64,000 nt of DNA from a virus: the IMG/VR virus record IMGVR_UViG_3300025151_000016, one strand, 5' to 3'. The translations under genes were made by a program, and so were the position numbers. The notes under the pieces are model-generated. The model did no database searches and was not told where the DNA came from. It worked only from the letters and a program-made list of their open reading frames with translations. This document shows, piece after piece, positions 39,239 through 52,888 of the stretch (position 1 is its first letter; the number at the start of each line of letters is the position of its first letter).

Positions 39239-40969
39239 ATGGCTTCATTAGACGCAGTCGTAGATCAGTTAAAGATACAGAATAAAATAACACTAGATCT
39301 AAGGAAATCTCTTGCAGGAAAATCTTCGGCTGATAGTCTTCAGGCGCTAGAAGATAAAAGTGAAGTATTGCCTGGCTCTGCTGCAATGCAAAACTTTGAG
39401 GCTGGACAAAAAGTAGGAGAGAAATTTGATCTAGGATTTTTAATGAATCCTATGATATTACTTAAACCTTTATTAGTGGCAGCTGCAGGTGTTGCAGCGG
39501 CATTCGCCGGCCTTAGAGGTTGGGAAGTAAAAGTTCTTAAAAATATTGATACGATAGGTGATGTTCTTAAAACAGCGTTTACTCCAATTACAAATATTGC
39601 TAATAAACTTACAACAAGTTTTACTAGTTTTGTTGATGATTTAACTCGTGGAACATTGGCTCGGTTTGGCATTGATCCAGAGACTGGTAAAATGGCAAGG
39701 GGCGCAAAAGGCCAATTTACTGGTAAAGAAGTAAAGACCACAGCGCAAATGATACAAGAATCAATGCAGGCTTTAAAGACTAGAGCATTTGGTTTCTTTG
39801 GTCTAGGTCCAGCTGGTGGATTAGCAGATGATGCTTTAAAAGCAGCTGACGGCACACCTTCAGCTATATCAAGAGTGACTGCAGCGTTTGGTAAGATTAT
39901 GACTCCATTTAGAGCGATATACAGCGGAGTTGAAAATTTTATAACTGGACCCGGTGCAAAACTTTTTGGATTTCTTGATGGTGTCTTAGGTATCACTAAG
40001 ATCGGTAGTGCGGCAGGCGGATTAGTAAAAGTTCTTGGTAAAGTTCTTTGGCCTATTGGTATTATAATGTCATTGTTTGACGGTGTAGAAGCATGGAGGA
40101 GCGAAAATGGATCACAATACGACAAAATCACTGCTGGTATTGCTGCGACTGTTGGTGATTTTATTGGTGCTCCTTTGGATCTTTTAAAAGGATTACTAAG
40201 TTGGGTTCTTAGTAAGTTTGGGTTTGATGAAACTGCTAAGGCAATTCAAGACTTTAGCTTTGAAGAAAAGATTACCAACTTAATAAATGGCATCTTTGAT
40301 TTTCCAGCAAAAGCAATAGAATGGGTTAAAACACTGTTTACTGATCCATCTGCAGCGTTAGGTGAGTTATGGACAAAACTAGTTGGTGAAGGTGGAATAA
40401 TCGATATCTTATTTGCTCCAGCACGACTTGCAATTGATTGGATTACCAAGACACTTGGATTTAGAGAAGAAGATGCTCCAACATTCTCATTTGGTGCATT
40501 AATCCAAGAAGGTATTGATGGGGTAGTTGGAATGTTTAGAAAAGCGTTTGCTGCTCTTCCATCTTTTCAAGATATAAAAAATGCTATTGTTAACGCACTT
40601 CCAGCCTTCATGGTTCCAGATAGTTTTAAATCTGATGAGATGCGTATTCAAGAAAGAAAAGATGAAATAGATGAGCATAGAGCTCAAATTGCTGAAGGTG
40701 ATAACCGCTTTGGCCCTGGCAATTTATACTCAAGGGAAAAACGTATAGCTGCTTTACAAGCAGAAATACAAGATTTACAACCTGTGTTACAAGTTGGCGG
40801 TGGACTTACTGCTGATGAGATTGCTGCTGGTGTAAGAGAAAGACGAGCGCAAGTTGTTAATGTATACAATAATATGAATGCAACTGGCGGAGGCGGAAAT
40901 GGCGGAGGAACCGCAATGATTCTCCCCGCCACACCAACACTGGATCTTATGGATCCAGTTGCTCAGTAG
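39239..40969 (+). CDS. Tape-measure-like / baseplate hub gp29-like protein
   Basis: 576 aa, Gly/Ala-rich amphipathic helices (GKVLWPIGIIMSLFDG), follows gp26/gp51. Confidence 0.6.
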   Translation: MASLDAVVDQLKIQNKITLDLRKSLAGKSSADSLQALEDKSEVLPGSAAMQNFEAGQKVGEKFDLGFLMNPMILLKPLLVAAAGVAAAFAGLRGWEVKVLKNIDTIGDVLKTAFTPITNIANKLTTSFTSFVDDLTRGTLARFGIDPETGKMARGAKGQFTGKEVKTTAQMIQESMQALKTRAFGFFGLGPAGGLADDALKAADGTPSAISRVTAAFGKIMTPFRAIYSGVENFITGPGAKLFGFLDGVLGITKIGSAAGGLVKVLGKVLWPIGIIMSLFDGVEAWRSENGSQYDKITAGIAATVGDFIGAPLDLLKGLLSWVLSKFGFDETAKAIQDFSFEEKITNLINGIFDFPAKAIEWVKTLFTDPSAALGELWTKLVGEGGIIDILFAPARLAIDWITKTLGFREEDAPTFSFGALIQEGIDGVVGMFRKAFAALPSFQDIKNAIVNALPAFMVPDSFKSDEMRIQERKDEIDEHRAQIAEGDNRFGPGNLYSREKRIAALQAEIQDLQPVLQVGGGLTADEIAAGVRERRAQVVNVYNNMNATGGGGNGGGTAMILPATPTLDLMDPVAQ

Positions 40970-40973
40970 TTAA

Positions 40974-41891
40974 TTAATCTTCGTTAGCTAATCGAGCAAA
41001 GTAGCTCATGGTATCTTCTTCATCAGTAGAAGATGCTGTTTCCATTACAGCCTCAGCTGTAGGCATAGCTGCTGGAGCTTCTGCCTTCTTTGGAAACTCA
41101 GGGATCTCATCATCTAATACGATTTCTTCTTTTACAGTACGAGGTGCTTGTTCACCTAACACTTGAGCTAACTTAACTTTGAGTTCATCATAAGACTTAT
41201 AGTTCTTAGGATCAGAGAACTCGGATAGATCATATGCTTTGTTGTATACTGTTTCAAGCTTTTCTTCATCACCGTCATATAGAGGGCTAGGACCACGGAA
41301 CTCTGATTTATCATAGTTACGATAACCTTCAACCTGGCGAATCTTTAGTACAAAGTCTGCACCTTCCCAAAAGTTAAAAGGATCAACTGGTTTCTCATCT
41401 GGAAACTCGGGTTGTAGTTGGTCCATGATTTTATCAAAGATCTTTTTACCGAACTGATACATCATTACTTTACCTTCATTGTCAGGAGCAGAAGGATCAG
41501 ATACAACTAAGACATTGGCTACATAATGTAGACGGCGCTTACGTTGTCTTACTGTTTCCTTATCAGACTCGACACCTGAGTTCCAAAGGCGTGTATTCAT
41601 TTCAGATACTGGATCTTGTTGACCAATAGATGTAAGTGATCTTTCAATGTACCACTGACCTGTTGGTCCTTTGAAACCATGATCCCAATACCGAACCCAA
41701 GGTAACTCATTACCTTCAGTTGCTGGAAGGAACCTTAGGATAGCATAGCCATTGCCGGCTTTATCCACTGTTGGTTTCCAAATACGATCATCGCCGTATT
41801 TCTTTTTCTGTTGTTCTCCACCTGCAGATTGTGCTGCTGCGACTAGTTTCGAAAAGTCGGTACGTGTACGTTTTAAATTTGCAAAAGACAT
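40974..41891 (-). CDS. gp32: Single-stranded DNA-binding protein gp32
   Basis: DDRIWKP..DK.GNG.A..RFLP, PWV..W.H.F.GP.G.WYIE...T, FGKKIFDK, GA.F.LK...V.GY.NYD.S.F, acidic tail SYF..LA. Confidence 0.95.
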   Translation of the reverse strand: MSFANLKRTRTDFSKLVAAAQSAGGEQQKKKYGDDRIWKPTVDKAGNGYAILRFLPATEGNELPWVRYWDHGFKGPTGQWYIERSLTSIGQQDPVSEMNTRLWNSGVESDKETVRQRKRRLHYVANVLVVSDPSAPDNEGKVMMYQFGKKIFDKIMDQLQPEFPDEKPVDPFNFWEGADFVLKIRQVEGYRNYDKSEFRGPSPLYDGDEEKLETVYNKAYDLSEFSDPKNYKSYDELKVKLAQVLGEQAPRTVKEEIVLDDEIPEFPKKAEAPAAMPTAEAVMETASSTDEEDTMSYFARLANED

Positions 41892-49143: not shown

Positions 49144-49220
49144 TGGTCTCGATGGCTGGATTTGAACCAACGACCTCTTGTACCCAAAACAAGCGCACTA
49201 CCAAACTGTGCTACACCGAG
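49144..49220 (-). tRNA. tRNA-Pro (anticodon UGG), CCA encoded
   Basis: CTCGGTG/CATCGAG acceptor stem, anticodon arm CTTGT-TTTGGGT-ACAAG, GGTTCAAATCC T-arm, ACCA end; 77 nt. Confidence 0.95.
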
Positions 49221-49258: not shown

Positions 49259-49756
49259 CTACTTTTTTTCCTCCATTAGTTTTATCGCAGCGTTGTGCGC
49301 AGTGCGAGAGATGACACCTTCACGTAATAGCTTCTCTCTATTTGCCATATGCTTCATATGGATCTCTTCTTTGTTTCCACCAAAATATGCTACAGCATGA
49401 CCTTCTTCAATAAGTACATCAGTAAGCTTTTCTTTCTTACCTTCTTGTCGTTCAATCCAAAAGTCTCCAAGAACACGACCAAACTTGCCTTTCATATCTT
49501 CACCATGTCTATCTTCAGTGGTGATAAGTCTTATGCTTCCAGTCATGAGTTCTATTACTCTTGCCTTAGCAGCTTCTCCAAATAAATCTTCGACTTTGTC
49601 AGAAGTACGTGATTCAGGTGTATCAATACCTATGATACGTACACGTTCATCTCTTAACATGATACCAAAACCAAGATTGATGTCTACGTCTACTGTATCG
49701 CCATCAATAACTTTTAGTACTTCTACGTCGTATTCGTTGTGATTAGTCATTTTCAT
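49259..49756 (-). CDS. Thermonuclease (staphylococcal nuclease family)
   Basis: VIDGDTVDVDI.LGF...RVRI.GIDTPESRT...GKFGRVLG...L..EGHA. Confidence 0.88.
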   Translation of the reverse strand: MKMTNHNEYDVEVLKVIDGDTVDVDINLGFGIMLRDERVRIIGIDTPESRTSDKVEDLFGEAAKARVIELMTGSIRLITTEDRHGEDMKGKFGRVLGDFWIERQEGKKEKLTDVLIEEGHAVAYFGGNKEEIHMKHMANREKLLREGVISRTAHNAAIKLMEEKK

Positions 49757-50906: not shown

Positions 50907-51107
50907 TTACTCCTCAGTTTCAATTTGCATGCAGATAGCCTGCATATTCAATGGGAAGTGGCCTTGTTGACCACCCACATCATAACTTAACATTTCTCTT
51001 GCATAAAAACAATGATGCATTTTTTCAAATGTATGACCTGGACCATATGCGTTTACTGCATGTACATCTGTACCTTCTACCATAATATATATCAGCATCC
51101 AAGCCAT
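50907..51107 (-). CDS. Small exported Cys-pair protein
   Basis: WMLIYIM N-term, F..M..C...RE...AIC; AAGGA RBS. Confidence 0.5.
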   Translation of the reverse strand: MAWMLIYIMVEGTDVHAVNAYGPGHTFEKMHHCFYAREMLSYDVGGQQGHFPLNMQAICMQIETEE

Positions 51108-51129
51108 AATAAATTCCTTTTTATAATCA

Positions 51130-51243
51130 GTGGGGAGTCCTTCCTAGGTGACCCCCCACCTATCTGCATTTAACGTATGCAGCAACCGACTGGGTTATTC
51201 GGTACCAGTACGTCCACCGACCTATATAGAGAGCGCAACTCTA
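51130..51243 (-). ncRNA. Candidate structured RNA (four hairpins, up to three pseudoknots)
   Basis: ~53% GC island in an intergenic gap; stems TAGAG/CTCTA, ACTGG/CCAGT, CTGCAT/ATGCAG, GTGGGG/CCCCAC; strand inferred from flanking genes. Confidence 0.6.
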
Positions 51244-51253
51244 CTTAGGATTT

Positions 51254-51709
51254 TTACTTTGTAAATGCTGTCTGATAAGTTATACCATTGACAACCCAAG
51301 TGATAACAGAATAGTCATACACTTTTTTATTTACATCTCTATACTCAGTGACATCTTGGCACTGTCTTTCATAATTATAACCAGTGATAACTCGTTTAGA
51401 CTTTTTCTTGTCTGCAGCTATCACTCCACCTATTACAGCACCAGCAGCGGCGCCGTTATCTTTATCAGTAATACCTTTACCGAGTAAAGCTCCAAGAATC
51501 ATGCCGCCAAGCACGTCACCGCCCGAGGCTCCTTCGCCTTGCACTGTACCGTATATAGGCACTTGCACTTGTTGACAAACCTGTTTTGTGTAAGGCGTCC
51601 TTTCAATTACCGATGTGTAGAAATCTTCTACACTAGCAGTTACCTGCTCTGCAGCAGCAACAGGCGCAGCGAATGCTACTATGGTTGCTGCTGTGATTAA
51701 TGTTTTCAT
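51254..51709 (-). CDS. Glycine-zipper 2TM exported protein
   Basis: Signal peptide MKTLITAA...AAA; GGMILGALLG...AAAGAVIGGVIA; Cys pair. Confidence 0.75.
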   Translation of the reverse strand: MKTLITAATIVAFAAPVAAAEQVTASVEDFYTSVIERTPYTKQVCQQVQVPIYGTVQGEGASGGDVLGGMILGALLGKGITDKDNGAAAGAVIGGVIAADKKKSKRVITGYNYERQCQDVTEYRDVNKKVYDYSVITWVVNGITYQTAFTK

Positions 51710-52594: not shown

Positions 52595-52888
52595 TTATCT
52601 GTAAGTTTCCCTGACACTTCGCAAAGCTCCTTCTATTTGAGACGGATATTTTCCTGTGTAAGTTCCTGCCTTCAACATGTCTTTAGTTAAATAATCCTTA
52701 TGTCTATGATCTATATTGTCCCAATCTTTCAAAATTTTTCTAGCCAGCTTATCGAACTCACTATCTTCTAAGATAGGATCGTCTTGTTCGTAATATGCGT
52801 ATGCTGCCATAATGTACCAAGGGACGCTCATATTGATGTTGCCGTCGACTATGTCGATACAAGCATCTTCAATACCTTTTTTGTCCAT
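52595..52888 (-). CDS. Stand-alone NAD-dependent DNA ligase subdomain Ia-like protein
   Basis: AYAYYEQDDPILEDSEFDKL matches LigA YY..D.P..SD.EYD.L. Confidence 0.65.
   Translation of the reverse strand: MDKKGIEDACIDIVDGNINMSVPWYIMAAYAYYEQDDPILEDSEFDKLARKILKDWDNIDHRHKDYLTKDMLKAGTYTGKYPSQIEGALRSVRETYR

Follow-up and report, generated by a model that had tools for sequence, protein, structure and literature searches.

An uncatalogued, pseudoknotted RNA family with self-complementary loop tips in uncultured marine T4-like myoviruses

What is encoded in the short, G+C-rich gap between two small genes of a marine phage? The question is raised by a 64,000-nucleotide stretch of DNA (in the following, the window), a 64-kb part of the 99.6-kb IMG/VR record IMGVR_UViG_3300025151_000016, which represents a T4-like myovirus and encodes baseplate wedge, hub, and tail-fibre proteins; judged by its gp6-like wedge protein, Phage C48C1 (42% identity) and Pelagibacter phage HTVC008M (36%) are its closest relatives in culture. 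The element in question is found on the minus strand, bordered by the stop codon (51254-51256) of a 151-amino-acid (aa) open reading frame (ORF) and the ATG (51107) of a 66-aa ORF. An earlier note on this DNA had described positions 51130-51243 as a compact RNA with four hairpins, all of which are indeed present, and had pointed to a G+C content of about 53% in an AT-rich background and to a last stem that ends shortly before the next ribosome-binding site. Both observations hold, as the G+C content is 52.6% in 51130-51243 versus 36-41% in the flanks (37.5% in the whole window), and the last stem, which ends at 51129/51130, is followed after ~10 nucleotides (nt) by the ribosome-binding site AAAGGA and after 22 nt by the ATG at 51107. 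Comparison with relatives extends the element beyond this interval to ~51253-51125, that is, from 51243 to ~51253 at one end and down to a GAUU tail at 51125 at the other. The answer developed below is that the stretch belongs to a genuine family of structured RNAs, uncatalogued and with a single pseudoknot, in uncultured marine T4-like myoviruses. The proposal of an unrecognised multi-pseudoknot noncoding RNA thus stands insofar as the RNA is uncatalogued, structured, and pseudoknotted, and falls with regard to the number of pseudoknots, which is one and not three.

Folding of the single sequence contributes little to this answer. The minus strand reaches a minimum free energy of -45.5 kcal/mol (z = -2.56), a value equalled by 2 of 200 shuffled sequences, and the plus strand gives a similar z; since the fold beats shuffles only modestly and the opposite strand behaves alike, the single sequence decides little and the proof has to come from relatives. 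These were collected by protein-anchored and pattern-anchored scans of IMG/VR and by one scan of Joint Genome Institute (JGI) metagenomes, using five DNA patterns. The resulting family comprises 98 distinct sequences, found on contigs of marine viruses and marine metagenomes, which correspond to RNAs of ~120-140 nt and whose inner modules (P1, pseudoknot-P3, and P4, see below) exist in several sequence versions that have been reshuffled among phages. A model built exclusively from one group of relatives, the B-type sequences (model R1), detects the window element over its full length (50.8 bits, E = 2e-12).

Homologue collection and covariation, which had been suggested as a check, hence yielded a large family in which pairing is kept by compensatory changes. 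In the B-type set (24 sequences), 97.5% of the proposed pairs can form and 18 pairs are altered on both sides, as compared to 36-52% paired in slid controls in which the partner was shifted by 1-3 columns. The window-type set (20 sequences) is 96.4% paired, and the 59 window-type cores reach 98.0% with 17 pairs altered on both sides. Over all sets, pairing thus amounts to 96-98%, with 35-52% in slid controls, and each helix of the element is backed by compensatory change somewhere in the family.

The architecture that emerges consists of an A-rich leader, the hairpin P1, a compact H-type pseudoknot formed by the stems S1 and S2, the hairpin P3, the junction AGAUAG, the 11-bp hairpin P4, and a GAUU tail, all on the minus strand. 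In the window, the single-stranded leader AAAU (51250-51253) directly follows the UAA stop codon and corresponds to the AAAAU of the AAAAUCC with which the family begins; it is here that conservation sets in, with upstream flanks that vary between the 3' end of a tRNA, the stop codon of a gp32-like gene, and that of the 151-aa ORF. P1 (51221-51249) is built from a base, a small internal loop, an apical stem (UAGAG:CUCUA, 51243-51239 with 51231-51227), and a 7-nt loop (UUGCGCU, 51238-51232) with the self-complementary core GCGC at 51233-51236.

The pseudoknot follows with the 5' strand of S1 (UCGGUG, 51215-51220), the loop L1 (GACGU, 51210-51214), the 5' strand of S2 (ACUGG, 51205-51209), the 3' strand of S1 (UACCGA, 51199-51204, pairing as 51204-51199 with 51215-51220), the loop L3 (AUAAC, 51194-51198; 5-12 nt across relatives), and the 3' strand of S2 (CCAGU, 51189-51193, pairing as 51193-51189 with 51205-51209). 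The 3' strand of S1 is thus situated within the loop of the S2 hairpin, and both stems covary, which defines an H-type pseudoknot. S1 is 100% paired in the B-type set, where G-C is exchanged for A-U in 5 and U-A for A-U in 11 sequences, and C-G is replaced by U-A in 8 of the 59 window-type cores. S2 is 99-100% paired, with 3 covarying pairs in the window type and, at 100% pairing, 2 compensatory pairs in the B type.

Downstream of a conserved joining segment (CGGUUG, 51183-51188), P3 (CUGCAU:AUGCAG with the loop ACGUUAA, 51164-51182) has four outer pairs that are 100% paired; C-G changes to U-A in 7 of the 59 window-type cores, and compensatory changes in the B-type P3 were recognised by eye in member L388. 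The AUA of the AGAUAG junction (51161-51163) is invariant in 98 of 98 members, a figure to be read with the fact that AGATAG formed part of most search patterns. P4 (51129-51160; 51160-51150 with 51139-51129) is 99.7-100% paired, with 9-10 of its 11 pairs covarying, and carries the 10-nt loop ACCUAGGAAG (51149-51140), which reads A-CCUAGG-AAG. It is followed by the conserved GAUU tail (51125-51128); in the window, the sequence after P4 is CUGAUUAUAAAAAGG, without a U-tract.

The covariation also sorts the additional pairings that had been read from the window. The earlier note proposed that a linker pairs with three hairpin loops, and the pairing UCGGU:ACCGA is identical to S1 and confirmed by covariation. 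The other two were not borne out. UAGG, suggested to pair with ACCUA, is instead the 3' strand of the P1 base (CCUA:UAGG, 51249-51246 with 51224-51221), which covaries with CCAU:AUGG in other members and remains CCUA:UAGG when the P4 loop reads CUGCAG; the linker copy of ACGU falls into L1, which is variable in sequence and length across relatives (UAACC in the closest one). A switch between alternative copies was likewise proposed, the second UCGGU copy being that of the joining segment. This 3' CGGU shows no two-sided change and is broken in the 8 sequences with altered S1 and in 7 more; as the downstream CGGU does not compensate and the upstream copy does, a switch is not supported. Two further pairings were considered and discarded: a pseudoknot between the P1 loop (GAUC) and GGUC, which is explained instead by an extension of the P1 stem, and a closing helix between the AAAU leader and GAUUU of the tail, which by eye is unconserved in the tRNA-linked subgroup.

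Natural variation within the window element lends independent support. None of the 24 public sequencing runs listed is an RNA run that carries it; DNA contigs from four other marine samples contain 7 variant sites within it, three of which are unpaired (two in apical loops, 51140 and 51237, and one, 51225, in the internal loop of P1), and the remaining four are Watson-Crick/wobble exchanges, namely U-A to U.G at 51138 in P4, A-U to G.U at 51209 in S2, G.U to A-U at 51215 in S1, and G51241-C51229 to G.U at 51229 in the apical stem of P1. No variant site at all occurs in 51141-51208, as compared to ~21 in a neighbouring 200-nt ORF. Furthermore, the closing pair of P4 is G.U in 58 of the 59 window-type cores, and such invariant G.U pairs make the structure strand-specific and fix it to the minus strand of the window.

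The second feature that sets this family apart resides in its loops. The P4 loop contains a palindromic hexamer in 98 of 98 members (CCUAGG in 56, at 51143-51148 in the window; CUGCAG in 33; CCGCGG in 7; CUCGAG in 2), as opposed to 4.9% of random 10-mers of the same composition. CUGCAG and CUCGAG were found by a P3-anchored scan that is blind to the P4 loop. The inner two positions of the self-paired hexamer are altered on both sides in 28 of 59 cores and never broken, so that the P4 loop is self-complementary and stays so when it changes. A scan with a free centre dinucleotide returned true members only with UA or GC, the latter on two stem backgrounds, and no other column that tracks UA versus GC, as a partner in cis would, was found by eye.

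At the tip of P1, all 13 tip classes hold a palindrome of at least 4 nt according to our own reading of the tabulated tips, for example, U-CUGCAG, AGCGCU, GGCC, GGAUCC, GGUACC, UACGUA, UUCGAA, CUCGAG, or UGUACA. Close relatives of the window element have AGCGCU or GGCGCU, and GGCGCU, found in one of them, is self-complementary only as RNA via G.U. Within one molecule, the hexamers at the P1 tip and in the P4 loop always differ; four apparent coincidences are due to CCUAGG in the paired P1 base. These self-complementary words on two tips suggest that RNA molecules may pair with each other, with CCUAGG of the P4 loop as the proposed kissing site in the window. P3 loops are often palindromic too (ACGU or UACGUA, UUCGAA, UGUACA or GUAUAC); five B-type members are without such a palindrome, and the P3 tip is therefore not consistently self-complementary.

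Perfect palindromes of restriction-site type could also be read at the level of DNA, as sites for a dimeric DNA-binding or DNA-cutting protein, with the element being a mobile or recombination cassette; the reshuffling of P1, pseudoknot-P3, and P4 among phages and the existence of two alternative genomic slots (see below) would fit such a scenario. Against it speak the G.U pairs, invariant or frequent, which would be A.C on the other strand, the Watson-Crick/wobble character of the natural variants, the covarying pseudoknot, and tips such as GGCGCU that are self-complementary only with G.U; moreover, no nuclease or recombinase gene recurs alongside. A DNA-level function is accordingly regarded as very improbable.

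Where the element is located gives further information on what it may do. Among the 44 viral members, 22 are positioned 1-47 nt after a tRNA on the same strand (Arg-UCU, Pro-UGG, Met, or Thr), some within tRNA arrays and many only 1-5 nt past the tRNA 3' end. About 20 of the 44 directly follow the stop codon of a gene for a T4 gp32-like single-stranded DNA-binding protein (SSB; phrog_224, 2e-110), a count in which the gene itself is seen at 17 loci and the remainder are cut off upstream. The two slots share the transcription direction and are 2-10 kb apart, and a homologue of the 151-aa ORF precedes the element, with or without intervening tRNAs, in one of them.

Model searches found one copy per genome or locus, L432 and L461 being the exceptions. 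In one phage contig (L007 and L359), the tRNA slot is empty and the gp32 slot filled, and in the window the situation is reversed, with an empty gp32 slot (a 4-nt gap to the convergent ORF) and the RNA 9 kb upstream. The gp32-like gene of the window is located at 40974-41891 (-; phrog_224, 3e-115), and the 4 nt separate its end from a convergent 576-aa ORF (39239-40969, +) with weak tape-measure-like matches. There is no tRNA within 1.5 kb upstream of the window copy. A tRNA-Pro(UGG) gene is found on the same strand 1.9 kb downstream of the element (49144-49220, -), and it is this tRNA that immediately precedes the RNA in several relatives. As relatives have a tRNA-Arg in the slot, a degenerate tRNA was considered for the element itself and rejected, because both ARAGORN and the Rfam tRNA model are negative on it and the family structure is clear.

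Direct proximity to tRNA 3' ends (1-5 nt in many members) together with a compact pseudoknotted fold might be expected of a ribozyme that cleaves itself and thereby contributes to the processing of transcripts with tRNAs, and a ribozyme was among the functions first suggested. No ribozyme family matched the window element in Rfam, even at E <= 10, and no cores resembling the hepatitis delta virus (HDV)-like double pseudoknot, hammerhead, twister, or pistol were seen by eye or by Rfam. About 20 members follow a protein gene, and the invariant nucleotides are mostly found in apical loops and the AGAUAG junction and not in an internal core. Self-cleavage is consequently judged very improbable.

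In the gp32 slot, a different picture suggests itself. Here, a large hypervariable ORF converges on the element and ends at ~+125, P4 has AGAAA in front of it and a U-tract (UUUUGAUUUAU) behind it, and the arrangement resembles a bidirectional terminator. It is therefore conceivable that the element is a cis-acting 3'-end module without any function in trans, with P4 serving as an intrinsic (bidirectional) terminator and the folded part upstream of it protecting tRNA or gene-32 transcripts against 3' exonucleases. The exact placement between convergent genes would agree with this explanation, as would P4 stems that are G+C-rich and covary as freely as terminator stems do. However, the window copy and the members in tRNA arrays lack the U-tract and are followed by a gene or tRNA, and a terminator scan reports nothing on the window minus strand here. 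For a terminator, moreover, a covarying pseudoknot would be dispensable, as would an invariant junction or loop hexamers that remain palindromic as they change. We thus consider such a module unlikely, if the least so of the alternatives discussed here.

In the window itself, the nearest gene suggests yet another role. The 66-aa ORF (MAWML..., 50907-51107, -; no Pfam or PHROG match) starts 22 nt downstream, in the window's clade the element always precedes this MAW... gene with a ribosome-binding site ~10 nt past P4, and a cis-regulatory leader (riboswitch-like or a protein-binding operator) might be assumed. A resemblance to the DUF2815 motif (RF03084) seems to add to this assumption, as in this phage motif, too, an A-rich ribosome-binding site and an AUG come after a hairpin, and the motif is tied to an SSB-type gene. 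The match scores 29.4 bits (E = 0.0015; gathering score 41.2) over 51105-51166, that is, P4 plus ribosome-binding site and AUG. It is absent in L201 and L406, both of which have no downstream start codon, and the downstream gene here is not DUF2815; being sub-threshold, limited to this segment, and lost without a start codon, the match does not make the element a member of the DUF2815 motif.

The riboswitch-like leader that had been envisaged also fails for other reasons. Roughly every second member lacks a same-strand gene on its downstream side, L016 has a tRNA in this position, and the genes found there vary from member to member. The 66-aa ORF is found 3' of the element only in the window's clade and in L003 directly follows tRNA-Arg with the element absent, and no conserved pairing sequesters the ribosome-binding site. 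The identity of the element is independent of what follows downstream, and, besides the two slot-defining genes (the gp32-like gene and the 151-aa ORF), no recurrent protein family was found next to the RNA. Taken together, the slot pattern, including the downstream gene without element in L003, speaks against a leader or riboswitch, which we regard as quite improbable, and favours an independent RNA unit on highly expressed transcripts.

On balance, it appears probable, by a modest degree, that the element is a stable trans-acting phage RNA that self-associates via two orthogonal kissing loops, which we consider the best explanation for the observations as a whole. According to this proposal, the RNA would be made within strongly expressed tRNA or gene-32 transcripts and be released as a discrete stable species. 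Its 5' end would presumably result from processing within the A/U-rich leader that follows the tRNA or the stop codon, and its 3' end would derive from the P4 hairpin, behind which a U-tract is present in the gene-32 slot and not in the window. It would then act in trans, and two or more copies would bind each other through their palindromic hexamers, the P1 tips and the P4 tips each kissing their own kind, to give a dimer or a larger assembly. For a host or phage factor, such an assembly might be a scaffold, or else a decoy or sponge. A sigma-70-like match (TTTACA, 16 nt, TAGAGT) at 51238-51265 (-) overlaps both the 151-aa ORF, at its end, and P1, in its 5' half; it is probably due to chance, as transcripts initiated there would lack part of P1 and the match is missing in related members.

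Several points weigh against self-association in trans. Only four kinds of P4 hexamer exist and the members are related by descent, so that few independent events are represented. Palindromes in RNA are palindromes in DNA too, with the G.U evidence favouring RNA. Several P1 tips are 4-nt loops with G+C-rich closing stems, a poor geometry for kissing, and the P1 palindrome of the window is limited to GCGC within UUGCGCU. The apical stem of P1, in addition, shows no compensatory change in the window's own subgroup. Finally, given a P4 without U-tract and a gene start 22 nt further on, a local effect in cis is possible for the window copy.

How does a self-associating phage RNA compare with known systems? 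ROOL and GOLLD are phage RNAs found near tRNA islands that form homo-oligomers held together in part by kissing loops, with intermolecular pairs that covary (PMC12286853). Like them, the RNA described here is phage-encoded, often located beside tRNAs, and pseudoknotted; in contrast, ROOL and GOLLD are 5-7 times larger, the RNA of this study also occurs as a 3' element of gene 32, and its oligomerisation is predicted from sequence. Neither ROOL nor GOLLD appears among the sub-threshold Rfam matches in the stretches around the element. A minimal (~125-nt) RNA that builds RNA-only homo-dimers or rings by means of two orthogonal, lineage-specific palindromic loops, with a hexamer 'code' that keeps the RNAs of different phages apart, would be a small counterpart of ROOL and GOLLD, an idea that we regard as possible and somewhat doubtful.

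Kissing of short palindromes has precedents in smaller RNAs. In HIV-1, homodimer kissing is driven by the dimerisation initiation site (DIS), a 9-nt loop with a 6-nt palindrome (GCGCGC or GUGCAC) and unpaired purine flanks, and in phi29, loop-loop pairs of the packaging RNA (pRNA), which covary between phages, build a ring. The palindromic P4 loop A-CCUAGG-AAG is reminiscent of these systems, which differ in that their sequences and biology are unrelated and that there are two different palindromic tips per molecule here, with no packaging role indicated.

Other parallels are found within the T4 group itself. Species 1 and 2 of T4 (rnaC and rnaD) are small stable RNAs of 119-139 nt that directly follow tRNA-Arg(UCU) in the tRNA cluster, a position shared by many members of the family and not by the window copy with its tRNA-Pro 1.9 kb downstream. 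The likeness is positional only. Unlike this family, rnaC and rnaD have tRNA-like ends (a T-arm-like GGUUCGAAUCC, or CCA), the fold of rnaD is no better than that of shuffles, and a search of the T4 tRNA region with model R2 and filters off gave a best match of 5.9 bits (E = 1.1) on a tRNA, with no indication of homology to rnaC or rnaD. An H-type pseudoknot linked to gene 32 is also known from T4-type phages, namely the leader pseudoknot located 5' of gene 32, which nucleates binding of gp32 over the ribosome-binding site. The present RNA, by contrast, is either situated 3' of gene 32 or separated from it by kilobases, and it contains three additional helices.

The family was previously uncatalogued. 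With Rfam 15 at gathering score, the check that had been recommended (wcaG, manA, and small ribozymes included) assigned no family to the element, and the only matches were tRNAs in the window (tRNA-Pro, in agreement with ARAGORN) and in 8 related loci; at E <= 10, neither wcaG nor manA matched the window element. A blastn comparison of the element, its flanks, and one B-type member with 50,697 phage records returned no true match. Models R1 and R2 found none in Phage C48C1, Pelagibacter phage HTVC008M, or Methylophilales phage Melnitz-3, an empty outcome that is in itself uninformative. In the literature, the loop and stem sequences turned up in no relevant context, and a keyword search gave no description of such an RNA. 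A pattern scan of 185,579 prokaryote genomes produced a single true match (L373, CAJXBI010000052.1) on a 3.6-kb contig. This contig is binned in a Tara Oceans metagenome-assembled genome labelled 'uncultured Bacteroidetes' and may represent mis-binned phage DNA or a weak hint at a host.

Two additional RNA features accompany some members. A tandem partial second copy is present upstream of the full element in L432 (1790-1909, +) and L461 (254-373, -); it comprises the pseudoknot and P3 body without P4, scores lower (46.3 bits with R2), and has UAGGUG:UACCUA as S1, a further compensatory version of UCGGUG:UACCGA. Moreover, at least 15 distinct members share a second conserved motif of ~46 nt (consensus ~UAGGCGCACGGGGAAAGCCUGACAAUNNCGUCGAANGUACCCAA) that abuts the RNA on its 5' side (for example, L181:4260-4305 (-), as well as L035, L230, L237, L321, L338, L363, L418, L427, L432, and L445). 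Its small hairpin covaries from GAC:GUC to GGC:GCC, and GGGG...CCC may form another pseudoknot. The motif has no Rfam match and is absent from the window.

As for the remaining neighbourhood, the upstream 151-aa ORF (51254-51709, -) has only weak PHROG matches. Small early-type ORFs surround the element, among them a staphylococcal-nuclease-like ORF (49259-49756, -; PF00565, 9e-12). For a 97-aa ORF (52595-52888, -) of this neighbourhood, the match to DNA ligase is confined to the N-terminal NAD+-binding domain (PF22745, 1e-7).

Natural RNA-only quaternary assemblies are rare, and those of phages, ROOL and GOLLD, are huge and hard to dissect. If self-association of the RNA described here should prove true, it would offer a tractable 125-nt model for why phages make self-associating RNAs beside tRNAs, with a pseudoknot secured by covariation and two tips that vary and yet remain palindromic. 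The RNA is abundant in marine T4-like phages, where it is linked to tRNA genes or gene 32. Even without oligomerisation, the family represents a well-supported RNA class that is new to Rfam and present in a major group of ocean viruses, and it indicates that part of the 'intergenic' DNA of marine T4-like phages is under strong structural selection.

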